This document shows positions 41,897 to 60,304 of a DNA stretch of 64,000 nt, piece after piece. Position 1 is the stretch's first letter; every line of letters starts with the position of its first letter. The notes under the pieces are model-generated. The model was not told the DNA's origin. It was given only the letters and a program-made list of their open reading frames with translations, and did not search any database. The translations under genes and the position numbers were made by a program. The DNA comes from Candidatus Hermodarchaeota archaeon (GTDB lineage Archaea > Asgardarchaeota > Lokiarchaeia > Sigyniarchaeales > SOKP01). The stretch covers positions 7,982 through 71,981 of the forward strand of contig JBHLLP010000005.1 in assembly GCA_048885525.1 (NCBI GenBank). The letters are read 5' to 3'.

Positions 41897-42002
41897 AACT
41901 CTAAATATTCTTTTTTTTTTTAATTTTATAGAGTACAAAAACATTATTCAACCATATTATAATTAAAAATTTTAAATTGGAAATAATCTTATTTCTTCAA
42001 TA

Positions 42003-43040
42003 ATGACGCAAAACCAGATTTTATGTATTACTTATTTTGACCAAGTAATCGGTCCTAGCACTTTATATTCAAGTGAACCATTAGTTAAAAGCATAGATAC
42101 ACCTGATATAAATCGAATTCTTGAATTCAACGATGAGGAAGGCACTTTCATTTTTGCTTATAGAAAGTTTCAAACAGTTAATCATATCTTTCACATTGAA
42201 TCAGAATTAGCTCGGGGGGGCAAAGATTTAATGATGATTACTTATATGATCAAAACAGCGATTTTCAAGGATGAAATCGTAGATGTGTTCAAATATTTAG
42301 ATTCTAAAGCACCAGTTTTAGAAGAATTTGCTTCTGAGATTAGTAAATTAAATGAATTAACAACAATTCTACACACAAAGAAGAGTGCTATTACTGGTGA
42401 ATACACTTTAGAATTAGCTAATGAGGAACTAAAACGTAATTTTTTGGACATATTCAATAAGTATTTTGAAAAATTAGCCCCTAAATACCGATTAGAAACC
42501 CCTATAAGGGATAAACGTCTTATAAAGAAAATTTTTATAATTGGGGCTCCTAGAGCTGGTAAAACAACATTTTTAAAGAATATTGAATTAATACAATTTT
42601 TAAATATTAAAAGAAATGATTTACCAAGTAGGATTTATGAAGTTGTTATTGAAAATCTCGAAATTTTACAATATGACGATGAGATGAGAGAATTCGAATG
42701 TAAAGATTTTGAGAATTTAGAGAATTGTGTTAACTTCGCGCAGGGATTTATCATACTTTTTAATTTATCAGATAAAAATTCAATTATTCTCACAAAGGAA
42801 ATTTTCAAAATAGTTGATAATACACGATTAAAAATTGAGACTGAATTGGCACCAATTTTAATTATAGGAAACAAGTTTCATGATAAGGAGGATTTTGACC
42901 AAGAATTTATTAATGAAACATTTGAAATTAATGAATTAAGGGAACTTGGTATCAAGATAAAATATTTTCCTATAAACATTTTAAAGGAAGACGAAAAAGT
43001 TATGAAAGCTATACGCTGGTTAATACGAAAAATTGTGTAA
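42003..43040 (+). CDS. Divergent small-GTPase-like P-loop domain fused to an N-terminal domain of about 175 aa with unknown fold
   Basis: G1 motif IIGAPRAGKTTF. G4-like IIGNKFHD. No clear DxxG (the expected position reads QYDDEM). Length and beta/alpha alternation resemble Ras/Arf-like proteins. Confidence 0.6.
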   Translation: MTQNQILCITYFDQVIGPSTLYSSEPLVKSIDTPDINRILEFNDEEGTFIFAYRKFQTVNHIFHIESELARGGKDLMMITYMIKTAIFKDEIVDVFKYLDSKAPVLEEFASEISKLNELTTILHTKKSAITGEYTLELANEELKRNFLDIFNKYFEKLAPKYRLETPIRDKRLIKKIFIIGAPRAGKTTFLKNIELIQFLNIKRNDLPSRIYEVVIENLEILQYDDEMREFECKDFENLENCVNFAQGFIILFNLSDKNSIILTKEIFKIVDNTRLKIETELAPILIIGNKFHDKEDFDQEFINETFEINELRELGIKIKYFPINILKEDEKVMKAIRWLIRKIV

Positions 43041-43181
43041 TATTAGACTAAAGAAAAATAGTAATAGTTAAGATTTCTTTTCATTAAATTAAACCTCCAG
43101 CAAATCTTTTAAATTATCATAAATATAATAAATAAAAATAGAATCATATTCAATCTTAAATAACAATTTGAATTCTTAAAA

Positions 43182-43535
43182 ATGGCATTTAAAGGCATAG
43201 CATGGGGAATTGTTTTCTTTTTAACAGCAGTTATATATTCTACAATTCCCACTTATTTAATTATTAGGTTTTGGGTGTGGTTAAACAGTTTTCCCGTTTA
43301 TACTTTATCATTATTTATGCTATTTTTATGGATTGTTGCTATAATTGTAGTACTAATCTATATTGTAGCAATGATAAGAGCTTTTATTCAAAGAAAAAAT
43401 GAAGAAGGTCTTGGTATTCCAAAAGGTGTGAAAGGTTTTGGATTAGTGTCAACAATCATAGTAATTGTATTCATGGTGATCTGGTATATTCTGTTTGGTA
43501 AAATTGCTTTTTTTACTATGATTCCTCCAATTTAA
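43182..43535 (+). CDS. Small membrane protein (4 TM), unknown function
   Basis: Hydrophobic ORF of 117 aa. Confidence 0.45.
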   Translation: MAFKGIAWGIVFFLTAVIYSTIPTYLIIRFWVWLNSFPVYTLSLFMLFLWIVAIIVVLIYIVAMIRAFIQRKNEEGLGIPKGVKGFGLVSTIIVIVFMVIWYILFGKIAFFTMIPPI

Positions 43536-44740
43536 TATAAAATAACTCGAATTACCTTAAAGAGGATTTGAGGATTTTTTATTAGAAATTTAATTAAAAA
43601 AAATAGAAACAGTGGATTTTTGATTATTTTGAATATTGTAGCTCGAGGAAAGTCCATATCACCATAAATAGATATTAATGTTTCAATTTCGCTTTTTTTT
43701 ATTATTCTGAATATCTTTTCAAAATCTTTCTTAGTACACTTCTCTAAAAAGGCTCGAATTAAATAATGAATTTTTAATTCTCTTCCAATTTTAATTCTAC
43801 ATGGAGTTTCATAATTCCTCTTGATTATTCTCCGTGTGAATTTTTTATATTTAAAACATTTTTTAATGCATTCAGCTGCATATTTCCCTGCTGTTAATAA
43901 CATTATGATCCCACCTCCAGTAGTAGCTTTAACTTGACAGGCTGAATCTCCTACTAGTAAAACATTATTAAAAGCAAGTTTGTTCATTAATCCATACGGT
44001 ATTAAACCGCCTTGTTGATCAATCTTTTGGTCAGGATTAATTTTTAGTCTATTTAGGAAAGTTCGGAAATTTTTTCCTATATTTTTAGAGCTTGCTATTC
44101 CAATACGATAGATATTGTTGCCTTCTGGGACGATCCAGCCAAATAATTCTCTCCATCGGCGATCAAAAAACAGCAGTGCTTCATTTTCATTAAATTGACC
44201 TTTAATACGGATCTGAGTAGCAAATAAATTATCATTTTTTATTCCTAATATCTTTCCTACAGAAGTTAAAGGTCCATCGCATCCAACCAATATATTAGCT
44301 TTAATTTTTCTTTTATTAGTTTCAATTAATACTAGTTTTTCTTGATTTTGTTTTATAATTTGAAAATTTCTAAATTTCTCTCCAAAACTATACTGAATAT
44401 TCTCATTATATTTAATTTTTTCATAGAATAAGCGGTCTAACCCCACTCTGTCAATTATGTATGGCTTTTCATTTCCTGCTAGTTTAATAAAGACTCCTGA
44501 GGGTGCTACAATTTTAGCTGTATCTACACGATTTAAAATTATTTCAGGAGGTAATTCGATTAAATTACTTAGTTTTTGAGAAACAATACCAGCACATTGA
44601 AGAGGCAGTCCTATTTGTTCATGTTCTTCGATAACTAATATTTTTAAATTAGTTTTGGATAATAAATAGCTTAAATAATTACCTGTAAGGCTTCCCCCAA
44701 TGATACAAACATCACAATCTGCAATTTTAATCTCCTTCAT
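43532..44740 (-). CDS. Geranylgeranyl reductase family flavoprotein (archaeal lipid saturation)
   Basis: DVCIIGGSLTGNYLS (FAD) and LLVGDSACQVKATTGGGI. Confidence 0.8.
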   Translation of the reverse strand: MKEIKIADCDVCIIGGSLTGNYLSYLLSKTNLKILVIEEHEQIGLPLQCAGIVSQKLSNLIELPPEIILNRVDTAKIVAPSGVFIKLAGNEKPYIIDRVGLDRLFYEKIKYNENIQYSFGEKFRNFQIIKQNQEKLVLIETNKRKIKANILVGCDGPLTSVGKILGIKNDNLFATQIRIKGQFNENEALLFFDRRWRELFGWIVPEGNNIYRIGIASSKNIGKNFRTFLNRLKINPDQKIDQQGGLIPYGLMNKLAFNNVLLVGDSACQVKATTGGGIIMLLTAGKYAAECIKKCFKYKKFTRRIIKRNYETPCRIKIGRELKIHYLIRAFLEKCTKKDFEKIFRIIKKSEIETLISIYGDMDFPRATIFKIIKNPLFLFFLIKFLIKNPQILFKVIRVILY

Positions 44741-44826
44741 GAGTTTTTAGAATATTACGATTTATAGTTATGAAAATTACAAATATATTGAAAAAATATC
44801 AAAAATTTTGTATATCGAAATTATCT

Positions 44827-45861
44827 TTAAGAATAATATTTTTTAACATAAATTAATTCATCGGGTGGAATCTCTCGATAACCTAATGATGTCATCATTC
44901 CATAGACTATTCCTAAAGTTACATTAGAAAAGATAGAATTAGTCTTAACAGTTAGATCTGTCCTTGATGTTAGAATTGGAGTAATTTTATCAACTAGAAA
45001 TTTTGTTCTAGGATTTTCTTCATATAATTTTATTATTGCATCTTTAAATGTTTTCATAAAATTCTCATGTTCTGAAATGATTTCATGAACATTGTTTTTC
45101 CCATTAACTATTCCAAAATGGCCAAAACCGGCTTTTAAAGGGAATAATTTTTTCAGATTACCTAAGGTTTCCATATACTTATTATGATTGTAGTAAATAG
45201 GCATAGATGATGGCATTGTTACTAACTTTGAAGTATGATAGAGGGTTCCAACACCTTCTCCAAAAAATATAAAATCTATTTTCCCATCTTTGATGAAGAG
45301 AGGCATCTGGTGATCTGGGGTGTGTCCAGGTGTTTTTAATATAGCTAATTTAACTTCTGATTCATTAGTAGTGAAAATATCAATGATATCAATTTTTTTG
45401 GGATCTTGATTAAAATTGGCACTTGGATCAATTATTTTAAAAGCAGTTTCTGGAATAGGTCTCATCTCACCTATTAAATTACCGTATGTGCGCTTACCCC
45501 GATTCAAATGAAGTTCAAAATCAATTAATAGTTCTTTAGTTATTTGATTTGTGAGAATTTTTACATCTGGGTTATACTTTTTTAATTTTGCATAAAGCTT
45601 CCACATTCCACCATTATGATCAAAATGATGATGGGAGGTTATTAAATATTTAAATGATGATAATGAGATATTCTGTTTTTTAAAATACCTTAATCCTTTT
45701 TTGATATCTAATGAAGATCCACAGTCAAATAAAACAGAGCAATCATCAAATTCTCCAAGAAAAATAGATAGCATTCTTGTTGTTCCATAACCTCTCATAT
45801 CAATATGATGGAGATATTCGTTGATCTTCCCCGTTTTTAAAGTTATTACCTCATTATCCAT
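44827..45861 (-). CDS. MBL-fold metallo-hydrolase
   Basis: TSHHHFDHNGG (HxHxDH); a later His (TPGHTPDH). Confidence 0.8.
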   Translation of the reverse strand: MDNEVITLKTGKINEYLHHIDMRGYGTTRMLSIFLGEFDDCSVLFDCGSSLDIKKGLRYFKKQNISLSSFKYLITSHHHFDHNGGMWKLYAKLKKYNPDVKILTNQITKELLIDFELHLNRGKRTYGNLIGEMRPIPETAFKIIDPSANFNQDPKKIDIIDIFTTNESEVKLAILKTPGHTPDHQMPLFIKDGKIDFIFFGEGVGTLYHTSKLVTMPSSMPIYYNHNKYMETLGNLKKLFPLKAGFGHFGIVNGKNNVHEIISEHENFMKTFKDAIIKLYEENPRTKFLVDKITPILTSRTDLTVKTNSIFSNVTLGIVYGMMTSLGYREIPPDELIYVKKYYS

Positions 45862-45959
45862 AGAAAAGGTAATTAAAAATACAATAAGAAGTATTTTATT
45901 ATAAAAAATTAAAAATTTGTGAGATTTAAAAGGTAAAAGTTATAAAAAGGATTTTTTTC

Positions 45960-48167
45960 TTAAAGATTTAGTTTTTGTTTCCAGATTTTCATTGAAAGTC
46001 TCAATTCCTCTCTTTCAGGATGGCTTAACACCTCTGATTTATCTTTAAGCTCTGTACCAGTACTATGAATAGTTTTTAATATACTATTATATCCCTCTGT
46101 CTTAACAAATTCATTTTGAAATCTTTCTAATGCTGCTGAAATTTCTTTTCCAGTCATTTTTTCTAGATTATTTAAAATATCATGGAACTGTTTTGATAAG
46201 AAAGTATCTTTTGGGATTTCGGCTACTTCTGTCTCTACCATTTTAGGTTCTTCCAATGGGGGTGTAATTACAGGTTTAGTAATGATGGGTTCTTCTTTTA
46301 GAGGTTCTTCTAATTTGGGTTGTGTTTCTAATGAAATTGGCTTTTTAATTGTACGCAAAATTTCCTTACGTGCTCCAACCCAAGCATCTTCAAGGATAGG
46401 TACAAATATTTTAATATGTTCTTCAATTATACTCCCAATACCTGCGATTTCAGTTAGATATTCTCCTCTAAATTCTGTTTTTGAAAGAACACATAGTATT
46501 ACTTCTTCATAATCTTTGTTAATTCCCCAAAGATTTTGTAGTGCTCGATTTCGATAATCTACGTTATCCATATTATCCATCTCTCGCATAATAGCCTCAT
46601 GTTCTGGGATAGTTGGATCTATATAAGTTGCAATTCTAAAGTTTATGCGTGAAGGTCGGGCTTTAATTGTCTCAATGTCAATGTCAGAAAGATTGGGTGC
46701 TACAATCAAGACTCTCATTTTAGCATTTAATATTTCTTCATTTATATGAGCTCTAGCCGCTTCTGGAGACCTAATAAACCATATATCCTTCATTGTAAAG
46801 CCACGTTGGCTTTTGGCTTGATCCCAAAATTCTCGAGTAGTAACTTCACTAACTTCCAATCTTTTTAAAATATCTGATAATGTATTATCTAGAGTGTCAA
46901 CAATACCCTTTCCAAAGATATCTTTTATATTACCAAATGATTCAAAAATACCTCCAGAAAGACCATCAATTCGTTGTTCCGCTAACTTTACAGCTTTATT
47001 AAAATTTTCAGAAATATCAGCAAATATTCTTTCTTTATCTTCTCCAGATTTGGAAGTAATTGATTCAATATTCTTTGCGGCATCTTCAAGTGAATCCTTA
47101 AGTTTTGAAATAATTTCTGTGTTAATTCCTTGTGTTGCTTTTTTCAATTCATCAGCAAATACAGTCTGACTGACGCTTAATTGCACGTTTAAATTGTCAG
47201 TAATATCTTTTAAACGTGTAGCAATAACTTTATCGATTACATCACTAACTGCTTGTTGAATTACCCCTAAGCGTAATTTTTGTAAATTTTCAGTAATAGT
47301 TGTTTTGATATCACCAAATTGATCTCGTAGATCATCAACTTGATTTTTAATAATCTGGGATGTTCTTACATTAAGATTTTCAAATTGCTTTGATAAAGAA
47401 CTAATTTGATCATCAGACAAAGACTTTGTTAAATCTCCGAGATGAGATATATCATCTGTAATTGTTCTAATTTGATCGATTGCTGAAATCGTCTGATCGA
47501 ATTCTTTCTTTTGAGCATGGATTTGAGAAAGCATTTTTTCTTTTAAATCTGACATTACTACACTAGAATCTTTCATTTTTTCCATATCCTTTGCCTCAGT
47601 TTCAAGTTGAGAAAATGATTTATCTAATTGCTTAGGGATAGTAGATTTTATATCATATATATAAGCATAAAATTTCTTCAATTGTGCGATTAAAGCAGCA
47701 TAAGGCGGTAAAGCCTGATAATGAGGAGTTGCACCGATAATCTCTTTAAATAATCCTTTTTCTACAAATTTATCAGCAATTTCTTTACATTTTTCTTTTG
47801 GTTTGCCAATTAGAATTGACATTTCCCCAATAGATATTGCTTCTCGACCTGTGGTTCGAAAATATAGATCTATTTCTTCATCCGATAGATCAATCTCACT
47901 TAATACTTGCTTTGTTAATTCTTTGGAATATGCAACATCTTTTTCTTTTTCTATAACATCTTTTATTTCAAAATTCTCTACTTCTAAATGTTGATTGATA
48001 AAAATTATTAATTTATGAGCAGGGTCGCCGTGAACATTTTCTTTTTTAATTGGAAACTTTTTAATTTCTTTATACTCATCTACAGAAATTGGAAATTTAA
48101 TATCTTTTAAACAAATCTTACATTTAATAGGGACTTCAACAATATCTTTATCTTTAAATAGATACAT
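45960..48167 (-). CDS. TrmB-architecture protein with an expanded coiled-coil insert of about 300 aa, an extra N-terminal domain and a P/E-rich C-terminal extension
   Basis: TrmB-like wHTH: LSDEEIDLYFRTTGREAISIGEMSILIGKPKEKCKEIADKFVEKGLFKEIIGATPHYQALPP. Long heptad region. TrmB_C/PLD-like segment: IWFIRSPEAARAHINEEILNAKMRVLIVAPNLSDIDIE. Then PKLEEPLKEEPIITKPVITPPLEEP. Confidence 0.55.
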   Translation of the reverse strand: MYLFKDKDIVEVPIKCKICLKDIKFPISVDEYKEIKKFPIKKENVHGDPAHKLIIFINQHLEVENFEIKDVIEKEKDVAYSKELTKQVLSEIDLSDEEIDLYFRTTGREAISIGEMSILIGKPKEKCKEIADKFVEKGLFKEIIGATPHYQALPPYAALIAQLKKFYAYIYDIKSTIPKQLDKSFSQLETEAKDMEKMKDSSVVMSDLKEKMLSQIHAQKKEFDQTISAIDQIRTITDDISHLGDLTKSLSDDQISSLSKQFENLNVRTSQIIKNQVDDLRDQFGDIKTTITENLQKLRLGVIQQAVSDVIDKVIATRLKDITDNLNVQLSVSQTVFADELKKATQGINTEIISKLKDSLEDAAKNIESITSKSGEDKERIFADISENFNKAVKLAEQRIDGLSGGIFESFGNIKDIFGKGIVDTLDNTLSDILKRLEVSEVTTREFWDQAKSQRGFTMKDIWFIRSPEAARAHINEEILNAKMRVLIVAPNLSDIDIETIKARPSRINFRIATYIDPTIPEHEAIMREMDNMDNVDYRNRALQNLWGINKDYEEVILCVLSKTEFRGEYLTEIAGIGSIIEEHIKIFVPILEDAWVGARKEILRTIKKPISLETQPKLEEPLKEEPIITKPVITPPLEEPKMVETEVAEIPKDTFLSKQFHDILNNLEKMTGKEISAALERFQNEFVKTEGYNSILKTIHSTGTELKDKSEVLSHPEREELRLSMKIWKQKLNL

Positions 48168-48200
48168 TATTCTAAATCATCTCATATTAATTATTATACT

Positions 48201-49454
48201 TTAAAATATTACTTTCTCTGGATATGTAATTTCTAATAAGCTAAGAGCTTTTCTAGCGATTTCATAAGTAATTGCACCATCAGTATCTTGATCTTTATAA
48301 GCTGCTCTTATTTTAGGGAGAAGATATTCTGGAAATATAATCAATGGTTTAATATCAGTTAATAGACATATCCATTTTCTGTCAGTCTCATCTGTAACTT
48401 CTGTAATTATATTTAATTTCTTTAGATCTTCTAATAAAATCTCAGTTACAGCGAACTCGGAAAAAATTTTTGGAATTTTATCCATTGGATAATGATTATG
48501 TCTCATTAAGACAAAAAAATCATAAACATCAGGATTGAGAAGAATTGATGCCAATTTTTTCGTATCTTCAATTGGTTGAGTATAAGGATCGTAATTTGAA
48601 AAGAAATCAACAACTTTTTGTCTATATAAAGGTAATAATTCATTTTTAGTCTCTTTAAAGTGGTTTAATAAGTTTTCATTTGGAACACGAGCAAACATTA
48701 AATCTTTAACTAGAAATAGATATTCTCCTTGATGGGTTAGTGTACCTGTTTTTTTGTCTTTTTCACCTTTTATCCAATCCCGACGTATAATATTTAACTC
48801 TAAAAAAGGTTGTAAGAGGATATCTACATTTACATTAGATGACATCTTTTCTAATATTGCCTTCATTTCCTTCTTTGAGATTGGTCTTTCTCTCAAAAGT
48901 TCTAAAATTTTCAAACGTTCATTACTATTATAGATCAAAGCGACTTTCTGAAGTTTATCTAAGTTTGATAAACGGTCCACTTGAAAAATAGTAAACTTTA
49001 ATTCATTTTTTAACCTGATATTAATATTCTCGATAAGAGAAAGTTGTTTCGAATTCCTTGCTCTTGTTAATTTATCAAAAATGACATCTAATCTTTTTCC
49101 CATTTCTTTAATTAGAGCTTCAAAAATGTCAATTTCATCATCTAATTCGAATACTGAGATGGCCAAATACTGCGTTCCATCAGCGACTTGTTTAAAATAA
49201 GATAATATCTGATAAGGAGTGTCTTTTGATCTTCCCTCATAAAAATTACTATAACTATACTTGACTCCAAAAAGTCCTGTAGTGTGCTGATAAAAAATCG
49301 CAAAAATATCATTTTGAGAAATTAATTCTGAAAAATGATCCTCATCATACTCATCTTCCCGGAAGATTAATTGAATTGGTTCAAACTCTGGTTCTATTTC
49401 ACCACTTTCTTTTTGATTAATCTTGAACTGAAATGTTAAAATACCTTGGATCAA
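48201..49454 (-). CDS. Hypothetical protein: N-terminal alpha/beta domain, central ArsR-like wHTH, C-terminal domain; co-oriented with 45960..48167
   Basis: NERLKILELLRERPISKKEMKAILEK. No family recognised. There is a 33-nt gap to the downstream gene. Confidence 0.5.
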   Translation of the reverse strand: MIQGILTFQFKINQKESGEIEPEFEPIQLIFREDEYDEDHFSELISQNDIFAIFYQHTTGLFGVKYSYSNFYEGRSKDTPYQILSYFKQVADGTQYLAISVFELDDEIDIFEALIKEMGKRLDVIFDKLTRARNSKQLSLIENINIRLKNELKFTIFQVDRLSNLDKLQKVALIYNSNERLKILELLRERPISKKEMKAILEKMSSNVNVDILLQPFLELNIIRRDWIKGEKDKKTGTLTHQGEYLFLVKDLMFARVPNENLLNHFKETKNELLPLYRQKVVDFFSNYDPYTQPIEDTKKLASILLNPDVYDFFVLMRHNHYPMDKIPKIFSEFAVTEILLEDLKKLNIITEVTDETDRKWICLLTDIKPLIIFPEYLLPKIRAAYKDQDTDGAITYEIARKALSLLEITYPEKVIF

Positions 49455-49754
49455 TTATATCACTTTACAGATTTGATAAATAAGTTTTTTAAATTAATAT
49501 TATAATATTACTTCTTAAGTATTATTTATTATTATAGTTTAATTAAACTTTATTCAAATTAATTAAGATTAGACATTTAGTATTTCTAAATAATTGATAA
49601 TACGTTGTAATTTATATATTATGATATCCTAAAGAAAAACATCTAAGAATATATTTCAAAGGTTTTAAGATATATTGGCAAATTATTTATTAAATAATTT
49701 AGTATAATACCTTAACAAAAATTTTTTAATTAAAAGAGCAAAGAATACCTAATT

Positions 49755-52700: not shown

Positions 52701-55250
52701 TCTTTTACAAAACAATGGCTTGATAATTATAACCTTACAACTCCAATAGAACCAACTTGGTTCCCTTCATATGGAGAATTAGGAGACAGTTCAGATGTAA
52801 AGGCAACTTCAGGTTCAGATCAAGCAAATTTTATAATAATAGGGGATACCTATGAGGAACAGGTCCTCCTTGATGATACAACTTTTTCGAACTGGGAAGC
52901 CTTCAATAAGTCTGAACTGGTCGTCGTTCCTCAACGCTCATCTGTCCCCTATTATGGAATTGATAGTGATGGAGCTTGGTGTAGTCATCGTTGGTGGGAA
53001 GGAGAGTCAGGGGGTCAACCTAAAAATACTCCTGTTATGCATTGGAGAACAAATGTGAGTCTATCAGTCGACATGTCTGATTATGTTATCACATCTGTAG
53101 ACTTCAATGCGATAATAAATGCTAGTGTAGATATGTATATTGATACTCCTGGTGATACTCTAGCTAGAGCAGGAGTTTCCATCAATCAATATGAGACTTA
53201 TGATTATGCCCGATTTTATGTTGAAATTACCACATTAGATGTTGATGAGTTAAATACTTACAGGATTGCCTTTAATCAAACACGATTATTAGGAAACGAA
53301 TTTCTTTCATTATATGATATAGAAGGATTTATAGGAGCTTATGAAGAAAAGGCGATAATTGATGCGTTAACTAATGTTTTAGCAGTAGATCCAGGTCATA
53401 ATAATTTCACCATTGTTTTAGGAATCTATTTATACTGTGAAGATAATAATTCTGGCACTGATCTTGACGATTGGACCGAATTACGTTTTAAATTTCTGAA
53501 TTTGACGTTTTCTTATGAAAAAAAAATAGATCAATTTACTTCCGTTTCATGGAATCAAGATGGAGATAAAATAAGTGATATTAGTAATTATACAGTGGTA
53601 GTTGATCAAGCATTCCTTAATTTCAAATATAAAATCAATGATACTTGGCCTAGCACATCACCAAATTCCGAAATTAGGGTTTTAATTAATGATAACTTAC
53701 ATCCTGAAACAGTAAAATTAACAACCGCTAATGCATCATTCCAATTAGCAAAAACAGGAGGTTTTGATGTAACTCCTCTAATTATAGAAGATGTGAACCT
53801 TTCAATTCAAGTATATGTTGCTGATGAATTTAGTTTAGATAGGAATATTGAAATTTCAATAGATGATGTTACACTAAATATATCTTATACAATAATACTT
53901 CCTGACGAGAAAACTGATCTGCATTTATTTTTAGATAATGTAAATAAAACTGACGATCCTGAGATTGATATATTTATTGGTGATTCTCTAAATGTTACGG
54001 TAAAATATCTTAATTCAACTGGAGAGCATATAACTAATGCTACAGTTCAACTATTAGGAAGTTTTGCTGGAGAATTAGAGGAAGATGATGGATTGGGACA
54101 ATATACTCGAATTATAAATACAGATATATCTGATGCTGGTACACATTTTTTAACAATTATTGCACGAGCAGAAGATCATGAAACACGGGAAATAATTTTT
54201 AGAGTAGATATTAATAAATTTGAGAGTGATAATTTACAAGTTCTATTAAATAATCAAAATCGCACTCAAGATCCTTATATTCAATTAACTGTAAGTCAGA
54301 TCTTAAATATAACTATTAAGTATACCAATCTTATAGGAACCCATATTTCAGGAGCAAATGTGCTACTCACATCTGAAACGTACTCTTCATATTTAAATGA
54401 AAGTATTAGTTTTGAACATTATTCAATAATTATTAATACAACTGAAAGATTAAAAATTGGAGCAAATTATTTAACAATTGAAGCACAAGCACCAACATTT
54501 CAAACCCAATTCCTAGATATAACAATCTCTATTAGAAAGATTAATCTTGATATTATAACTATAACTGGTTCAAATTCTATAGAGGCTAAAAAAGGAGACA
54601 ATATCAGGTTACAGGTAAGATTAAATAATACAGATTTTGGTGGATTTGTAAAGGGGGCATTTTTAACATATACATGGCAAGAGGGAGATGGCATTCTTAC
54701 TGATGATAACAATGATGGGATTTATGAAGCTACGATCTCAAATTTTCCAGAGGGTACATATTCAATAGAATTATTCGCATTTGTGGGTGATGATTATAAT
54801 ATTGATATGTATCAAATTTTTGTATCAGCAACGAGTGAAGAGGAGGAGGAAAATATTATTTTTCCAATACTGTTTTCAATTTTTCTTGTATTAATATCTG
54901 GTTTAGCAATTTATCTTTATGCCTATCAAACATATTTAAAATATCCTAAACAAGTTAGAAAAGTTCGAAAATATAGAAAATCCCTAAATCGTAAGGAAGC
55001 TCCTAAAGTACAAATTATAGGCAGAGAGACTGCCTTCAAATCATACTATAACGAAAATTTAGGAAAGGATACTAGCAATTTAAAATTGAAACGCCATCCA
55101 GGAATAACAAAATCAATGGAACAAAAAATAAGTGTTGATAAAGCACCTGATAAATCTCTAGAAAAAAAAATGGACCAAGATCAATTAACTAGAAAAGTTA
55201 TTGAAAAGAAGGAAGAATTGGATGAATTAATTAAAGATTCTTCAAAATAA
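49755..55250 (+). CDS. Giant 4-TM surface protein made of two in-frame tandem paralogous modules. Each module is: signal anchor, conserved domain of about 330 aa, Ig-like repeats, TM helix, basic tail.
   Basis: Uninterrupted 1831-codon ORF. Hydrophobic segments lie at aa ~10-30, ~780-800, ~932-953 and ~1702-1725. There are many NxS/T sequons. Internal repeat offset is 2769 nt. Confidence 0.8.
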   Translation: MILRNGKKKSFLIFSFIFLISFSSIFIFSINQNTSSILNKKFGGSEKNNLKNPKLAAQETLTAVWFENPTFEDPIGPTWYHLYGELGDNSDIKATSGSDQANFIIIGDSYEEQILLDDTTYTNWEAFNKTELVVVPQRSSVPYYGIDSDGAWCSHRWDEGETGGQPKNTPVMHWRTNVSLNVDMSDYIITSVDFNAIINGSVDIYIDTPGDTLARAGVSINQYETYDYAQFYVEITTLDINELNTYRIAFNQTIWLGNEARLLYDIEGLIGAYEEQAIINALNNVLAVDPGHNNFTIVLGIYLYCEDNNSGTDLDDWTELRFKFLNLTFSYEKKIDQFTSASWNQDGDKVSDISNDTIIINEAKLNFNYKTDSNWTDASPNSEIRIFINNNKLTETIKLSTATTSFQIAKIGGYDVTSLIPYNVFINFSIQVYLADEFSLSKNITFSIDNLYLNITYTVLFPDYQTNLQIFFNGVNKTSLPFYDHPVGNDLNITVKYPDDTGTHIPGAVVQLSGNLTGTLQEDPSYEQYTIIIDANDFNAGTYDLKIVAHKVNYKLSTISRVLTVSPTSSQDLQLFLNGENKTLDPSFEISLDKLLNITIKYNTFLGTPVTGASVTLSGEGILENLNESVSLNQYSTIINTTLNLKYGTNLLEIEAKKLNHETKFEYPRINIRKINAMITPVNNTNTISTKPGGDATIQVYINNTDFNEIVKGAYVTYSWDFDDGILYDLDNDGIYEVNITDVPAGTHSININAFGSDKYNFISLEIIIAAVKPIDSSFLFRALLIAAIIVSIGLTSYLYAYQTYLKYPKQVRKIRKYRKTLRKAKDPHIPIIKRKKAFNRSYQEELDKTSINLKSKPKGEKELQERMVKESPENSGVELPNGTIKQSTNSHFTNKDKTNRKNKNRTHRKWFKFSLKKKWGGSLNIKNNRKFLYLIFILASLILYSLIICPFISQNSTIFSNDSVNNVFNENVGKLGISAQESFTKQWLDNYNLTTPIEPTWFPSYGELGDSSDVKATSGSDQANFIIIGDTYEEQVLLDDTTFSNWEAFNKSELVVVPQRSSVPYYGIDSDGAWCSHRWWEGESGGQPKNTPVMHWRTNVSLSVDMSDYVITSVDFNAIINASVDMYIDTPGDTLARAGVSINQYETYDYARFYVEITTLDVDELNTYRIAFNQTRLLGNEFLSLYDIEGFIGAYEEKAIIDALTNVLAVDPGHNNFTIVLGIYLYCEDNNSGTDLDDWTELRFKFLNLTFSYEKKIDQFTSVSWNQDGDKISDISNYTVVVDQAFLNFKYKINDTWPSTSPNSEIRVLINDNLHPETVKLTTANASFQLAKTGGFDVTPLIIEDVNLSIQVYVADEFSLDRNIEISIDDVTLNISYTIILPDEKTDLHLFLDNVNKTDDPEIDIFIGDSLNVTVKYLNSTGEHITNATVQLLGSFAGELEEDDGLGQYTRIINTDISDAGTHFLTIIARAEDHETREIIFRVDINKFESDNLQVLLNNQNRTQDPYIQLTVSQILNITIKYTNLIGTHISGANVLLTSETYSSYLNESISFEHYSIIINTTERLKIGANYLTIEAQAPTFQTQFLDITISIRKINLDIITITGSNSIEAKKGDNIRLQVRLNNTDFGGFVKGAFLTYTWQEGDGILTDDNNDGIYEATISNFPEGTYSIELFAFVGDDYNIDMYQIFVSATSEEEEENIIFPILFSIFLVLISGLAIYLYAYQTYLKYPKQVRKVRKYRKSLNRKEAPKVQIIGRETAFKSYYNENLGKDTSNLKLKRHPGITKSMEQKISVDKAPDKSLEKKMDQDQLTRKVIEKKEELDELIKDSSK
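49921..52328 (+). repeat. Tandem duplication unit 1 within the giant ORF
   Basis: Aligns codon-for-codon with 52690..55094. Very high identity over about the first 800 nt (GELGD.SD.KATSGSDQANFIIIGD...NLTFSYEKKIDQFTS) and again at the TM/tail. The Ig-like middle is much more diverged. Confidence 0.9.
52690..55094 (+). repeat. Tandem duplication unit 2 within the giant ORF
   Basis: See unit 1. The offset is 2769 nt at the N-terminal domain and 2766 nt at the tail. Confidence 0.9.
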
Positions 55251-55557
55251 ACTAAAATTTAATATCAGCTTTTTTAACTTAATTATTTTTATTTTTAAGC
55301 GAATTAGTAATGAAGCTAAAATAATAACTCAACTATTTTAAAATTTATATATCAAAAAAAGGGGTAATTTATCTTATATATAATAATGTCTTAAGTAACT
55401 TAAACGATAGGTAGAAAAAGCACTTATATACTGTTTAAACTTGTTTTTTGAAAGTGAATTATTTATTAGGAACTTTTACCCATTAACTTTAGTTAATAAT
55501 ATAAACCAAATTGAGTTTAAATAAATTATAAAAATCATCATATTTAGGCGAAAAATT

Positions 55558-58500
55558 TTGATTAAAAATAGAAGAATTAGACAAAGGTCAAGATCTATAG
55601 GATTATTATCTATTCTATTATGCATTTTTGTTAGTTTTGTTTTATTAAATTCTGATAGAGAACATATTTTATCTATGGAAAATAATGAGAACAATTTAGA
55701 GAATGTAATTCAAAATAATTTATTAAAAACTTCAAGCCTTTCTTTGAATAATATTTTTAGTGGAATTGGAGAACCGTGGAATGCAACCCATTATGCAAAT
55801 CGAACCGATTATAATTTACCAGTTAATTTTGGAAATGGTACATACGATACAGCAGAAATTCCATTAGGAATTGATTGGATTGGGTATCAATTAAATGCAT
55901 CAATAGACAATCTTTATGATACTAGAAATTGGAATAATGGTACGTTCGATTTTGGAGATGATGATGGAACGTATGCTGCGGCTGAGGATGATACAAGTGA
56001 TATAATAAATCCATATCAAAATTGGACCTTTAATTTACTAGACGGTGCTACAAATAATGATATGAGTGGAAATTATTTAGATAGCGGATATGGTCCATCT
56101 GATGGGCATAACTGTTTAGAATTAAGAATGGATGGAAACCCTAACGTATTAGTTGGATACCGAAACTATAATGAAAATGATAGATGTTGGTGGAATAGTA
56201 CGTTTGTTATCCCAAGGGGAACCATAATAAGCAGTACTTTAGAATTTGATGTTAATCCAAATTATTTAGCAAATTTTAACTCATGGGATTTTGGGATTTT
56301 AATTAATAGTCAACAAATTTATAGTATTGGTACTTATTCACTTAAACAGCTTGGTGAGGGATCTTGGCATAGTTTTAGTATTCCAAGTTCTGTTTGGATC
56401 AATCAGTCTAACGTTTTCAATTCACCAGTTAATGGGACTAGTATATCTATCGAATTTAGTTTAGAATATGTAGCAACATCCGCGAGTTATTCAAATGGAT
56501 TTACAAATATAGAATATCAACAAATATTTGTAGACAATATTAAATTAGTAAGTAAAGCAGAAGTAAAACCTAGTCAACTTCTATTGAAAATAAATAATAC
56601 CGATGTAAATGATGTAGATTGGGGAAAAGGCTACTTAGAACTAAAGGGTAATTGGCAATCTTCAAAAGTTTATGCTAATTTTAGCAGCGATGATACATGG
56701 AGTCTTAGTAATTTTGATATAGAATTAGACACAGATTTGAGTTTATATGCTCTTAAAAATATTCCTGAGACTAGCTATGAAACGAATATTTTTTCAGAAG
56801 GCGTAAAGTTTTCAGTTGAAAACAATAGTTTAGTTAGTTGGGAGAGTTATAGTTATTTTGCCGTTCCTACCGGGTATGAAGAGAGTACTATGAGGCTTGA
56901 ATTTCCAACAGATATAGATATAAAATGGGTATCTGAACCACAACAACCAAGTGTTAATAGACTAACTCAATGTGATAATTCTACAACGGGATTATTATTA
57001 ATTCCAGTAAACTCAATATCAACCACTCCTGATGGTTTCTGGAGATTTGAAGGTAAATCGCCTAATTATTGTGAAGAGTTGCAGATTTTTAAAAATACAA
57101 CCAGTATACCTACTGGAAATGATTGGATTCAGGAAACTGAATTTTTTAGTGGAGATTATATTAATATAACTACAAAAATAACAGATTCTTCTTTAGTTTC
57201 AAGTTATATTCAACAAACTAAAGCAAAACTGCAGATTAGATTTCCAAATGGTTCAATTTGGACAGAAGTATATCAATTACAATCTCCAGACTCGAATGGT
57301 AATGTAGATTTCAATTATTTTCAAATACCAAAAACACCACCAAATTATGAAGTTGGAGAATATGAAGCAATAATTACTTGGAATAACTCTTATTCAATAT
57401 TCGGATTAAATGAAACAGGTATTATAACAAAAAAGTTTACTGTAAAGCATTTCTCAACACTTACACCTGATCAGAGCTATTACGCTAATATTCTTGAGGG
57501 CGATACAATCAATCTTTTAGCATCTTTTACTGATAAAGAGAATGGAGATGCAATTGAGGATGCTTTAGTCTATATCGATAACTTCTTGGGAGGTAGAGAA
57601 TATTTTAATGAAATTAGTCCCGGATTTTATGTTTTATTAGACTTTAATACATCAGGAGGAGTTGCTGGTGATAACATACTTACTATATATGCAAATTCAT
57701 CTTTATATCAAAATAATACAAACCAGATAACTATAAATCTAGTACTCAAGACAACACTTACAGCTCAAGAATTTCCATATTTGCAAGTTTCGTGGAATGA
57801 AAATTTTACGATTCACTTGAATTACACGGAAACTACAACTGGAAATGGGATAATCACGTCTCCGACAAGTAATTGGCTAGGAGAATATTCTATAAATATG
57901 ACTTCACCAGGAATCTACAATATGGAGTTTAATAGTTCCTTATATGAAGTAAATAAAATCCATTCACTAATAATCAATGTAAACGAAGCTAACTATGAAT
58001 CTCAGAATGTTCTAATTAAAATCGAAATAATCGAAAGAGAAACATATATTGATAATGTTTTTCTTAATGGCATTGAAAAAGTAACAGATAAGAGTATAAC
58101 TCTTACTTCTGGACAACTTTTAAACATAACAATTAGTTATAAAGATCAAATTTCTGGTGATTTTCTAAGTGGGGCAACTGTTAGAGTTGTTGGTGGAGGA
58201 CTTTCTGAGTTTTTAAACGAGAGTTTAATTTATCCACAATATGAACTAGTATTTAATACATCACTTTTGGATGTTGGGGCCACATTTCTCACGGTCTCTG
58301 CGCAATTACAAAATTACAGCTCGTCAGCTATAGTATTGACACTTTATCTTGATGTTAGGGGAACTTCGATGGTTGTTTTATTAAATGGAGCTATATATCC
58401 AAATAATTATATAACTGTTGAAGTTACGGAAAAAATTAATATAACAGTCATCTATACCGATTTCATAAGTGGGTCTTATTTATATAACGCTACAATAGAA

Positions 58501-59616
58501 TTATTAGGATATGGATTTTTTGATGAAAATCCTTCCTTAGAACAATATAATTACACTATAGATGCAGGTATTTTGGGTCAAGGAATTGATATTTTGAATA
58601 TTATTGCAACTAAGAGTAATTATCAATCTCAACCAGCTCAAGTAACTGTAGAGATTACTGAAAAAAATACAAACCTTCAATTATTTTTTAATGGTGATAA
58701 TAAAACTGCAGATCCATTTTTAGAATTACCCATCGGATCATCATTAAATATTACTGTGAAATATTCAGATTTACTTGGTAATTTTATTGACAGTGCTGAT
58801 GTAATACTTCTTGGTGAAGGTTTATCTGACTCTTTAAATCAAAGTATCAGTTTTGAACAATATTCAATTTTATTAGATACACGTCAATTGGATATAGGAG
58901 TAAGATTATTAACAATAGTAGCACAAAGAAATAATTACCAACTAAAGAAAATTAATATTAGATTAGATATATTACGCATTAGAACTAATATTACAACCTT
59001 ATCGGGTATTAATGTGATTAATATCATTGCTGGTCAATCTGTTGATTTGAAAATCAAACTAAATGATTTAGATTTTGGAGGTTTAATTTTGAATGCAACT
59101 GTATCTTATCGATGGCAAAATGGACAAGGAATTTTAACAGATAATGATAATGATGGTATATATGAAGCAACTATTCCCAATATACCAAAAGGCTCGTTTA
59201 TTATTACAATAACCGCATTTGCAGGAGATGATTATGATTTTGAGAGGTTTGAGATTTTTATAACTGCAATAACCGAACCTGGAGAGGATTCACTTTTGTG
59301 GTTAGGATTATTTATTGGCGTTTCAATAGCAGCTGGAATTTTGATATCCTATCTTGTAGTCTATACACGTATTTTGAGATTTCCTAAACCTGTCAGAAGA
59401 GTACGAAAATTCAGAAAAAGTTTGAAGCGCAAAACTGTACCTAGTATAAGTGTAACTGGTCGTCAAAAAGCTTTTGATTCCCTTTATAGTGAGGAATTAG
59501 CTAAAACATCTGGTATAATAAAATTTAAGCCACTAGTAAGTAAAAAGAAATCGATACAAGAAAAAGAAGCTCAAATACCAGTATCAATTAAAGAAAAACC
59601 TGAAACTTTAGACTAA
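55558..59616 (+). CDS. Giant type-II-anchored surface protein with at least 6 Ig-like repeats, C-terminal TM helix and the same conserved basic tail (TTG start)
   Basis: N-terminal anchor IGLLSILLCIFVSFVLL. Repeats carry LNIT[VI].Y and DNDGIYEATIPN motifs shared with 49755..55250. C-terminal LLWLGLFIGVSIAAGILISYLVVY is followed by RILRFPKPVRRVRKFRKSL. Confidence 0.8.
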   Translation: MIKNRRIRQRSRSIGLLSILLCIFVSFVLLNSDREHILSMENNENNLENVIQNNLLKTSSLSLNNIFSGIGEPWNATHYANRTDYNLPVNFGNGTYDTAEIPLGIDWIGYQLNASIDNLYDTRNWNNGTFDFGDDDGTYAAAEDDTSDIINPYQNWTFNLLDGATNNDMSGNYLDSGYGPSDGHNCLELRMDGNPNVLVGYRNYNENDRCWWNSTFVIPRGTIISSTLEFDVNPNYLANFNSWDFGILINSQQIYSIGTYSLKQLGEGSWHSFSIPSSVWINQSNVFNSPVNGTSISIEFSLEYVATSASYSNGFTNIEYQQIFVDNIKLVSKAEVKPSQLLLKINNTDVNDVDWGKGYLELKGNWQSSKVYANFSSDDTWSLSNFDIELDTDLSLYALKNIPETSYETNIFSEGVKFSVENNSLVSWESYSYFAVPTGYEESTMRLEFPTDIDIKWVSEPQQPSVNRLTQCDNSTTGLLLIPVNSISTTPDGFWRFEGKSPNYCEELQIFKNTTSIPTGNDWIQETEFFSGDYINITTKITDSSLVSSYIQQTKAKLQIRFPNGSIWTEVYQLQSPDSNGNVDFNYFQIPKTPPNYEVGEYEAIITWNNSYSIFGLNETGIITKKFTVKHFSTLTPDQSYYANILEGDTINLLASFTDKENGDAIEDALVYIDNFLGGREYFNEISPGFYVLLDFNTSGGVAGDNILTIYANSSLYQNNTNQITINLVLKTTLTAQEFPYLQVSWNENFTIHLNYTETTTGNGIITSPTSNWLGEYSINMTSPGIYNMEFNSSLYEVNKIHSLIINVNEANYESQNVLIKIEIIERETYIDNVFLNGIEKVTDKSITLTSGQLLNITISYKDQISGDFLSGATVRVVGGGLSEFLNESLIYPQYELVFNTSLLDVGATFLTVSAQLQNYSSSAIVLTLYLDVRGTSMVVLLNGAIYPNNYITVEVTEKINITVIYTDFISGSYLYNATIELLGYGFFDENPSLEQYNYTIDAGILGQGIDILNIIATKSNYQSQPAQVTVEITEKNTNLQLFFNGDNKTADPFLELPIGSSLNITVKYSDLLGNFIDSADVILLGEGLSDSLNQSISFEQYSILLDTRQLDIGVRLLTIVAQRNNYQLKKINIRLDILRIRTNITTLSGINVINIIAGQSVDLKIKLNDLDFGGLILNATVSYRWQNGQGILTDNDNDGIYEATIPNIPKGSFIITITAFAGDDYDFERFEIFITAITEPGEDSLLWLGLFIGVSIAAGILISYLVVYTRILRFPKPVRRVRKFRKSLKRKTVPSISVTGRQKAFDSLYSEELAKTSGIIKFKPLVSKKKSIQEKEAQIPVSIKEKPETLD

Positions 59617-59640
59617 TCGAAAATATTAGAAGATTTAATC

Positions 59641-60198
59641 TTAAACTCCATTATTTTTTATACAAGCTAATATTATAGCGTCATGAAATTTCCCTTGAAA
59701 ATTCAAATACTGCCTTAATGTGCCTTCTATTTTGAATCCACATTTTTCAAAAAGAAAGATAGATCTTTTGTTTTCTAATGCGATGTATGCTTCAAGTCGG
59801 TTAATTTTGAGATGATTAAATCCAATAATTTTAATTAAGTTTATAGATTTTTCACCCAAACCCTTACTCCAAAAAGAAGGTGTTATCCAAATCCCAACTT
59901 GAGCCCTATAATGCTTCCAGTTAATATTCCATAGACTAATCGAGCCGATTTTCACTTTATTAACGTTGTGTAATTCGATTATGTAATTAAATTGAAGATA
60001 ATTATCCCAATACTTTGAATAATTTTTTATTAATCTTTTTGCATCTTCTATTGTTTTTAAAGGACCTAAGGATAAATATAAATTTAATTCATTTTCATTT
60101 AGGCTATTAAATACAAATTCTGCGTCTTCTTTAGTTATTTTTCTAAAGACGAGATTTCCATCATTAATTTCTTCAACAAATTCAGAGTTTCTAATCAT
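59641..60198 (-). CDS. RimJ/RimL-type GNAT N-acetyltransferase
   Basis: WSKGLGEKSINLI...NKRSIFLFEKCGFKIEGTLRQ. Confidence 0.8.
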   Translation of the reverse strand: MIRNSEFVEEINDGNLVFRKITKEDAEFVFNSLNENELNLYLSLGPLKTIEDAKRLIKNYSKYWDNYLQFNYIIELHNVNKVKIGSISLWNINWKHYRAQVGIWITPSFWSKGLGEKSINLIKIIGFNHLKINRLEAYIALENKRSIFLFEKCGFKIEGTLRQYLNFQGKFHDAIILACIKNNGV

Positions 60199-60304
60199 AT
60201 TACAAAATTAAAAGATCTTAGTTCATTGAATAAAAAATGTTTTTATAAATATATCAAAAAAAAGGGTTAAAAAATGTATTGAAAAAACTAGGATATGTGA
60301 GAGT

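Follow-up and report, generated by a model that had tools for sequence, protein, structure and literature searches.

The stretch of DNA analysed here, referred to as the window, comprises 64,000 nucleotides (nt) of a Candidatus Hermodarchaeota archaeon assembly (GCA_048885525.1, contig JBHLLP010000005.1), and its closest relatives are metagenome-assembled genomes (MAGs) of Promethearchaeota (Asgard). Eight open reading frames (ORFs) lie between positions 42003 and 59616, all of them where an original prediction, made from the letters alone, had placed them (Table 1). That prediction proposed a single 17.6-kb module in which giant surface proteins are coupled through a shared cytoplasmic tail to a coiled-coil TrmB-like protein, a winged helix-turn-helix (wHTH) protein and a degenerate small GTPase, with a geranylgeranyl reductase (GGR) and a metallo-beta-lactamase (MBL)-fold hydrolase encoded between them. 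Comparison with related loci reduces the module to a conserved core, which consists of one to five genes for tail-bearing surface proteins, a gene for a protein of 375-417 amino acids (aa) that joins a longin domain to winged helices (longin-wH), and a gene for a 650-735-aa protein with a TrmB-type wHTH (TrmB-like). These three gene families are obligately linked, and the linkage has survived duplication into two types of cassette.

The two surface-protein genes of the window encode three tailed modules. The 1831-aa ORF holds two of them in tandem, each made up of an N-terminal anchor, an ectodomain, a transmembrane (TM) helix and a tail, and the resulting in-out-in-out-in topology is self-consistent. 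At the DNA level the two modules are 83% identical over 300 nt near their N-termini and 88% identical over the 89 nt that encode the end of the TM helix and the core of the tail. An assembly error as the source of this fused ORF is excluded by the same two-tail single ORF (1812-1820 aa) in four other genomes (loci L006, L007, L008 and L010). The 1352-aa protein resembles the other modules in its last ~400 aa only (39% identity, covering Ig-like repeats, TM helix and tail). Of the predicted three paralogous giant modules, the three tailed units are thus confirmed, two of them fused in one ORF and the third paralogous at its C-terminus alone. Orthologues of the 1352-aa protein in L011 and L007 are 74-86% identical, and its type of ectodomain also occurs with a different tail subtype in L014 and L101. 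Sequons for N-glycosylation are about twice as numerous as a crude expectation would have it (50 versus ~25, and 37 versus ~22). The surface proteins gave only weak Pfam matches, to PKD and aRib, and their ectodomain heads gave none.

The sole invariant part of this set of surface proteins, as judged from sequence, is the TM helix with the strongly basic juxtamembrane tail behind it, whose net charge is +14 to +16 per 61 aa. Translated in six frames, the 64-kb window contains three copies of the motif [YF]PKxVR[KR][VI]RK[YF]RK and no more (nt 52176, 54942 and 59380), each directly after a TM helix, so that the three predicted TM and basic-tail segments are real. They do not carry one and the same tail, as had been claimed: identity between the three is 41-49% over 90 aa, and 27 columns are invariant. 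The tail has no match in Pfam or NCBIfam. A word-indexed protein search with the 113-aa TM and tail alone found nothing, and an exhaustive profile search was needed. With a profile built from the three TM and tail segments of the window, 224 representative clusters were recovered at E<=1e-3 (149 at <=1e-10) among 1.84 billion proteins. Their representatives range from 70 to 2009 aa, the match lies almost always within ~80 aa of the C-terminus, and about 12 of the 224 clusters carry two tails. The consensus reads YQxx[LF]K[YF]PxxVRK[VI]RK[YL][RK]K, followed by a subtype-specific distal block; its core, AYQ+VLKYPKxVRKx+K, is near-invariant even between clusters that are less than 50% identical. 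Recurrence of the tail family is far beyond chance.

One tail-bearing protein, P0296 (1763 aa), has its tail at aa 1259-1340, followed by a cytoplasmic region of ~400 aa with the alpha/beta-hydrolase signature GHSLGG. This join may reflect a true link or an artefact of gene fusion. A gene for a membrane-anchored alpha/beta-hydrolase also lies in the syntenic block of the window (40199-41896).

The 417-aa protein has no sequence-profile match in Pfam, NCBIfam or the Protein Data Bank (PDB). It was modelled with AlphaFold2 (AF2) from a 39-sequence alignment, with a mean predicted local distance difference test score (pLDDT) of 83 and a predicted template modelling score (pTM) of 0.76. Strands at residues 3-13, 19-30, 70-74, 80-88 and 94-102 and helices at 37-58 and 107-133 give its N-terminus the beta2-alpha-beta3-alpha2 order of a longin fold. 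In structure searches with Foldseek this region matched the Lokiarchaeota Roadblock-Longin structure 8yqg_A with probability 1.00 (TM-score 0.52 on the target), and also Lst4 (0.99), TRAPPII (0.93) and Nprl2 (0.90); the E-values of the longin matches are modest, the best being 3.6e-3. The rest of the model matched winged helices of ArsR/SmtB/MarR type. What had been described as a three-domain wHTH protein is accordingly modelled as a longin domain, a helical hairpin and two winged helices. Longin domains serve as platforms for protein-protein contacts at membranes. That of the 417-aa protein is acidic, with a net charge of -12 over aa 1-106. At least 961 relatives were found, all from Asgard MAGs and with a typical length of 375 aa. 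Their alignments contain neither a GP motif nor an arginine in the loop at residues 89-93, in which they differ from longins of the GTPase-activating protein (GAP) type, which have GP after beta1 and carry an arginine finger in the loop between beta4 and beta5 (inspection against PMC12290439).

The gene for the 735-aa protein starts 33 nt downstream of the 417-aa gene. Pfam TrmB (PF01978) matches all four aligned homologues (best E=1.3e-10) and is present in the precomputed annotation of homologues; the window copy alone scores E=0.14. Over the same wHTH, the family profile matches residues 9-99 of TrmB in PDB entry 3qph (E=0.007). Conservation of the wHTH signature is strong in either cassette type and extends to the wing (G.TP.Y.ALPPY); the region of the recognition helix is not the same in the 735- as in the 650-aa type. 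An amphipathic helix follows directly, as is typical of the TrmB family: a strong hydrophobic periodicity of 3.5-3.67 residues starts at aa ~150 and runs for ~280 aa, and a single proline occurs in 290 aa across the helical region. The original prediction of a TrmB-like protein stretched by a 300-aa coiled coil therefore stands as regards the TrmB wHTH and a periodic helical stretch of ~280 aa, for which a coiled coil is plausible. Weak matches of this stretch to BAR (BIN2), apolipoprotein and PEP_C profiles are probably compositional. Outside the wHTH, searches of Pfam, NCBIfam and PDB sequences detected no TrmB_C-type sugar or effector domain. The protein as a whole is acidic (net charge -21).

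Ahead of its wHTH the 735-aa type carries C16-x2-C19 and H46-GDP-x-H51 ('CKICLK...HGDPAH', window 47943-48167), which are absent from the 650-aa paralogues. This segment has no family match and may be a zinc-binding module. In cultured P. syntrophicum MK-D1, the ten proteins best detected by proteomics include a 'TrmB family transcriptional regulator', DSAG12_03376 (PMC11284389, Table 1). Should it be an orthologue of the 650/735-aa family, its abundance would argue for a structural rather than a purely regulatory role.

Linkage of the three families was assessed from the tail outwards. When the C-terminus of the surface proteins was taken as anchor, in a single genome for each GTDB species, the surface genes were found next to homologues of the two cytoplasmic proteins in 10 of 12 loci, and the other two are cut by contig ends. 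A metagenome anchor gave 165 tail relatives; the 417-aa homologue was present in 23/23 of the loci counted, namely those kept in which 900 nt or more preceded the first surface gene. These 23 loci alone prove little, since they come from one clade with extensive synteny. The decisive observation for the meaning of the neighbourhood is a second type of cassette, found in nine loci (L014-L019 and L101-L103). Here the longin-wH protein has 374-376 aa and is ~32% identical to that of the window, and the TrmB-like protein has 641-667 aa (~30%). The order is surface gene or genes, longin-wH, TrmB-like, all co-directional and packed as in an operon, with gaps of -8 to +46 nt. A tail-bearing gene stands directly before the longin-wH gene, on the same strand, in all nine, and the TrmB-like gene follows in seven. 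The flanks also differ, with SDR and Roblocked/LC7 genes upstream and DUF6786, MFS or radical-SAM genes downstream. Because the linkage is retained in a second, paralogous type with changed order, orientation and flanks, it is not a chance juxtaposition; kept across such divergent versions, the trio is linked at the level of an operon. The original prediction was to fall if tail-bearing proteins in other genomes showed no co-localisation with the cytoplasmic families, and for the 417- and 735-aa families the outcome of that test is positive on all three counts of loci.

Window-type and second-type cassettes co-occur in single MAGs. The 375-type protein P0022 (KGD58_06765, MBY8990439) shares its locus-tag prefix with P0227 (KGD58_12785, MBY8991624), which is the GTPase orthologue adjoining the 734+417 cassette in L099, and the accession numbers of a second pair are neighbours. 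On these identifiers, the two cassette types are judged to be within-genome paralogues and not orthologues from distant organisms. The window-type tail, YPKxVRKVRKYRKTL...P..I..R..AF...Y..EL.KT, always accompanies the 417/735-aa pair, and the second-type tail, YPPxVRKIRKLRKKIRK.KK.K..L..R..I, always accompanies the 375/650-aa pair. Tail subtype follows cassette type and not ectodomain family; the subtypes of tail, longin-wH and TrmB-like protein and the promoter element described below all switch together.

An array in L101 (4261-18486) reads surface (956 aa), surface (945), longin-wH (374), surface (1320), longin-wH (375) and TrmB-like (667). Its two longin-wH copies are 64% identical, and the TrmB-like gene stays single. 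In L103 a further surface gene follows the 375-aa longin-wH gene. Because it has been duplicated together with surface genes in L101 and stands beside an extra surface gene in L103, the longin-wH protein is the closest partner of the surface proteins. No gene of the block is better conserved than that for the longin-wH protein, at 83-90% identity across the compared loci: comparison of the window with L099 gives 83% for it, against 68% for the TrmB-like protein, 61% for the GTPase, 62% for GGR, 64% for MBL and ~58% for the surface head. Taken together, we regard it as well supported, and very probable, that the longin-wH and TrmB-like proteins are functionally dedicated to the tail-bearing surface proteins.

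Two further kinds of gene recur upstream of the second type, namely a Robl_LC7 (roadblock) gene on the opposite strand and a gene for a 352-406-aa longin-like protein with a coiled-coil C-terminus (L015 2752-4450, L017 1838-5425, L018 2758-6360, L102 3039-3500 and L103 2016-4224). The 352-406-aa protein was considered as a member of the 417-aa family and rejected, there being no detectable relationship. The roadblock-type genes may be mere synteny or may belong to an extended neighbourhood.

Table 1. Genes, protein segments and promoter-proximal elements of the locus. Nucleotide positions are those of the window; aa positions refer to the protein named.
Feature	Position	Strand	Remarks
345-aa protein	42003-43040	+	Pfam Arf E=9.6e-6, aa 176-343
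Membrane protein, 117 aa	43182-43535	+	
Geranylgeranyl-reductase (GGR) family	43532-44740	-	TIGR02032 E=6e-44
MBL-fold hydrolase	44827-45861	-	Pfam
TrmB-like long-helical protein, 735 aa	45960-48167	-	
TrmB-like, CxxC...HGDPxH segment	aa 1-75		
TrmB-like, TrmB wHTH	aa ~85-160		
TrmB-like, amphipathic helical region	aa ~160-445		
TrmB-like, globular domain	aa ~450-605		
TrmB-like, Pro-rich linker and C-terminal helical domain			Domain small; after the globular domain
Longin-wH protein, 417 aa	48201-49454	-	Divergent from surface genes
Longin-wH, longin domain	aa ~1-135		
Longin-wH, helical hairpin and two winged-helix domains			After the longin domain
TCTTAAGTA copy 1	49513-49521	+	242 nt upstream of 1831-aa gene, 59 nt from 417-aa start
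Two-module surface protein, 1831 aa	49755-55250	+	
1831-aa protein, signal/anchor	aa 9-31		Hydrophobic segment
1831-aa protein, TM ending ectodomain 1	52074-52160 (aa 774-802)		
1831-aa protein, tail 1	52161-52349		Then linker
1831-aa protein, TM before ectodomain 2	52542-52622 (aa 930-956)		
1831-aa protein, TM ending ectodomain 2	54846-54929 (aa 1698-1725)		
1831-aa protein, tail 2	54930-55115		
TCTTAAGTA copy 2	55389-55397	+	Context TATATAATAATG-TCTTAAGTA-ACTTAA; 169 nt upstream of 1352-aa gene
Single-module surface protein, 1352 aa	55558-59616	+	Distinct N-terminal ectodomain, C-terminal Ig-like repeats
1352-aa protein, TM	59287-59376		
1352-aa protein, tail 3	59377-59553		

The promoter regions of window-type cassettes contain a candidate promoter-proximal element or operator, TCTTAAGTA. 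Both copies in the window lie just downstream of a TATA-like box, and the element is invariant in eight aligned divergent intergenic regions from eight genomes. Window-type loci totalling 853 kb contain it 51 times; 50 of these copies are on the strand of the surface genes and 38 lie within 400 nt upstream of a tail-bearing ORF. Such regions make up ~4.5% of the sequence, and the element is ~60-fold enriched in them; the next long ORF is a median of 155 nt away. It is absent from the promoters of second-type cassettes. TCTTAAGTA contains a TACT/AGTA-like half-site and sits between TATA and the expected transcription start, and this position together with the AGTA half-site recalls TrmB operators, which lie downstream of TATA in a system whose regulator is encoded with the membrane system it controls (PMC4158304). 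The plainer alternative that accompanied the original prediction, ordinary transcriptional regulators next to surface-protein genes, gains support from the TrmB wHTH and from this conserved, oriented, TATA-proximal element.

Other candidate elements were set aside. The TATCAC/GTGATA repeats of the divergent intergenic regions, considered as TrmB 'TGM' sites, lie 5-11 nt before gene starts and match GGTGAT ribosome-binding sites. The TATCACTTCAATATTCCAGA block, considered as a general element of the second type, occurs in 3-4 of the nine loci only. A block TATCACT(T/C)(C/A)AATATT(C/T)CAGA, ~35-70 nt upstream of the TTTTTATA box (L014 ~8479, L016 ~985, L018 ~7573, and a variant in L015), was likewise seen in 3-4/9 and hence is not general. 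If TCTTAAGTA marks the core promoter, the 5' leaders of the surface mRNAs would be ~100-240 nt, long for archaea; an Rfam scan of 41000-60500 found no match.

The interpretation that we favour, while holding it tentatively and at somewhat less than an even chance, has the acidic longin-wH protein docking on the basic tail, with the TrmB-like protein as its partner and probably active at TCTTAAGTA promoters. More specifically, the longin-wH protein would bind the invariant basic tail in the manner of a receptor-tail adaptor and would act jointly with the long-helical TrmB-like protein. The latter would be a submembrane scaffold or, as we think likelier, a DNA-binding regulator of TCTTAAGTA at the surface genes. 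Docking on the tail would then set the availability of the TrmB-like protein, and the load or engagement of surface proteins would be coupled to expression of the cassette. Tail docking is separated from plain regulation indirectly, by the tail's length and subtype-specific conservation, the longin fold, the co-duplication and the strong conservation of the longin-wH protein. The charges are complementary, the tails being strongly basic and both the longin domain and the 735-aa protein acidic. A more demanding version, in which the cassette is a transmembrane receptor/adaptor system with an invariant tail on interchangeable adhesin-like ectodomains and a longin adaptor controlling a TrmB-derived DNA-binding rod, is possible and on balance doubtful. 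If true, these cells would signal from the outside in, or anchor their coat to the cytoplasm, by means of a fold that serves membrane traffic in eukaryotes.

Several points weigh against docking. Acidic cytoplasmic proteins are common, so that charge complementarity is weak evidence. Co-variation of tail and partners rests on just two cassette types, and divergence after duplication, with gene conversion within arrays, could yield it. Conserved adjacency is equally expected of an ordinary local regulator and its targets. The role of the basic juxtamembrane segment could lie instead in topogenesis or in contacts with lipid head groups. Among 150 tail-bearing representatives we found no Rosetta-stone fusion of the tail with either cytoplasmic family, and all evidence comes from MAGs of one phylum.

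The closest competitor is ordinary local transcription control, in which the TrmB-like protein acts at the promoters of the adjacent surface genes, the longin-wH protein is its co-regulator or a sensor, and the tail has an unrelated function such as membrane anchoring, lipid binding or oligomerisation. We consider this quite possible, if short of probable. The TrmB wHTH of the 735-aa protein and the two winged helices of the 417-aa protein speak for it, and TCTTAAGTA, oriented and enriched upstream of tail-bearing ORFs, would be the operator; the element is specific to one cassette type, and the 735- and 650-aa proteins are unlike each other in their recognition-helix region. TrmB itself is encoded within the transporter cluster that it represses (PMC4158304). 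This account leaves unexplained why a tail of ~50 aa, with a distal block specific to the cassette, is kept on ectodomains that range from 450 to 2000 aa, and why the longin-wH gene is duplicated along with the surface genes. Sequence-profile searches also failed to detect the TrmB effector-binding domain in the 735-aa protein. Moreover, we know of no DNA role for a longin domain, yet the longin-wH protein is the tightest and best-conserved partner. Alternatively, the pair might be a non-regulatory scaffold, sorting or biogenesis device beneath the membrane that anchors, clusters or targets the surface proteins, for instance to protrusions or the cytoskeleton, with the wHTH and winged helices as protein-protein modules. 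The longin fold, the helical rod of ~280 aa and the multivalent two-tail proteins suit such a scaffold, as does electron cryotomography (cryo-ET) of cultured Lokiarchaeia, which shows complex surface proteins and assemblies at curved membrane (PMC9834061); the BAR, apolipoprotein and PEP_C matches would point the same way were they not probably compositional. Conservation of the TrmB wHTH signature and wing in both types argues instead for a retained TrmB-like function, the TrmB-like gene has one copy per array, and no membrane-binding motif was detected, all of which makes a pure scaffold unlikely.

We consider very improbable the full 17.6-kb module, to which the degenerate GTPase, GGR and MBL would contribute a switch and lipid remodelling. 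In its favour, these genes stay beside the 417/735-aa pair in window-type loci down to ~60% GTPase identity, the 345-aa GTPase family is well conserved, with 292 relatives of constant length, and the MBL and GGR genes come after the 735-aa gene in the same orientation, with gaps of 98 and 86 nt. However, the GTPase, the 117-aa membrane protein, GGR and MBL accompany the window-type cassette only, the last three lying downstream of the 735-aa gene; tblastn found no homologue of any of them in L014-L019, and GTPase, GGR and MBL are absent from every second-type locus. The GTPase was not seen in the available upstream sequence of L008 and L010. The window-type synteny also runs on through genes for an LPG-synthase, HerA, MFS, a 293-aa protein, an alpha/beta-hydrolase, GNAT, ECH and HCDH, and a URO-D gene is inserted among the neighbours in L099 and L100. 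As this synteny extends to evidently unrelated genes, the proximity of GTPase, GGR and MBL is ordinary synteny, and their proposed membership in the module is not supported. Coincidental juxtaposition of unrelated genes, at the other extreme, is effectively refuted by the two paralogous types and the operon-like spacing in one of them.

The 345-aa protein was fairly described as a degenerate small-GTPase fusion. Its GTPase domain (aa 176-345) has a generic Ras/Sar/Arf fold by AF2 and structure comparison, and the Pfam Arf match scores 25.6 bits against a cut-off of 22.3. In 38 homologues the G1 P-loop GxxxxGKT (G181, G186, K187, T189) and N290-K291 of G4 are conserved, and the G-motifs of Arf are otherwise incomplete: neither DxxG (G3) nor the G4 Asp is conserved. 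The N-terminus (aa 1-172, nt 42003-42520) carries the invariant residues Y11-F12-D13...G17-P18 and A70-R71-G72-G73 ('ILCITYFDQVIGPSTLY', 'ELARGGK') in the same homologues. It is poorly modelled (pLDDT<50, aa 1-99 without a model) and has no sequence-profile match in the PDB. Its GP and LARG motifs may be folliculin-like, a lead only, as a comparison with a folliculin (FLCN) sequence aligned just 27 residues with 15% probability in hhalign. On that lead, the protein would be a GAP-type longin fused to a catalytically degenerate Arf-like domain.

The remainder of the window (1-41900) is ordinary metabolic and housekeeping context. It encodes an HdrA-like flavoprotein with CCG domains, an aldehyde:ferredoxin oxidoreductase, ferredoxins, a URO-D/B12-binding methyltransferase pair, GH127, GAPDH, SDR, MFS transporters, a HerA-like ATPase and a TPR protein. 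The 293-aa protein of the syntenic block (39165-40046, minus strand) has no Pfam match and is better conserved than most of its neighbours (78-87% identical in L007, L099 and L100).

Among characterised systems, the TrmB of P. furiosus and T. litoralis, from the trehalose/maltose ABC-transporter cluster, is the nearest counterpart of the 735-aa protein. Both have an N-terminal wHTH followed by an amphipathic helix, which dimerises in TrmB, both are encoded within or beside the membrane or surface gene cluster concerned, and both have an operator, here a candidate, just downstream of TATA with a TACT/AGTA-like half-site (PMC4158304). Unlike TrmB, which has one helix, the 735-aa protein has a helical stretch of ~280 aa, lacks a detected sugar-binding effector domain, carries extra C-terminal domains and, in one type, the CxxC/HxxxxH N-terminus, and is always paired with a longin-wH protein, next to tailed surface proteins instead of a transporter. 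The 417-aa protein shares its longin fold (Foldseek probabilities of 0.9-1.0) with eukaryotic longin platforms (NPRL2/NPRL3 of GATOR1, FLCN/Lst7-Lst4, Bet5/Trs23 of TRAPP and AP sigma) and with the Asgard protein 8yqg. Like NPRL2/3 it joins a longin to C-terminal domains of winged-helix type, and it is proposed to be a protein-protein platform at the membrane. It differs from the eukaryotic platforms in having no match to Pfam or PDB hidden Markov models, and in that its conserved core encodes no GTPase partner.

The arrangement of variable ectodomains, an invariant short tail and dedicated cytoplasmic partners resembles integrin and cadherin tails with talin and catenins, and E. coli Mlc held by PtsG. 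There is no homology to these systems, and the likeness is an analogy of function with the mechanism proposed here. The tails also recall PGF-CTERM/archaeosortase signals, in which a C-terminal TM helix of a surface protein is followed by basic residues. The tails of the cassette, by contrast, are 60-130 aa long, have their conserved motif after and not before the TM helix, also occur internally in two-module proteins, and show neither a PGF-type motif before the TM helix nor an NCBIfam sorting-domain match. The 345-aa neighbour, with its N-terminal non-GTPase domain and Arf-like Ras-superfamily domain, resembles the Asgard small GTPases fused to longin or roadblock domains, which account for 26 of the 74 GTPases in MK-D1 (PMC10933270), and differs from them in the loss of G3 and the G4 Asp and in its place outside the conserved cassette.

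In the literature we came across no account of the tail, of the cassette or of the two cytoplasmic families, and no Pfam or NCBIfam model covers the tail, the longin-wH family or, beyond the wHTH, the TrmB-like family. The cassette is apparently undescribed and is built from known folds; under local transcription control it would be a variant of the familiar layout of a regulator next to its membrane-protein targets. Asgard longin and roadblock domains have expanded into well over 100 families and are rarely found in conserved operons, so that almost none of these families has a known partner (bioRxiv 10.1101/2020.10.19.343400; PMC10933270). Cultured Lokiarchaeia have no S-layer and display abundant surface proteins, unidentified by cryo-ET, that are thought to mediate cell-cell contacts relevant to eukaryogenesis (PMC9834061). 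The present analysis provides a defined triad, namely a near-invariant 20-residue tail peptide, a longin-wH protein of 375-417 aa and a TrmB-like protein with a candidate 9-bp operator. Without docking, these organisms would still have a dedicated regulator pair and a promoter code for their main family of variable surface proteins. Under the receptor/adaptor interpretation, the cassette would be one of very few conserved operons that give an Asgard longin a partner. If the tail does dock on the longin, the longin-wH protein would be the first candidate for an archaeal receptor-tail adaptor, and an Asgard longin would gain a functional assignment.

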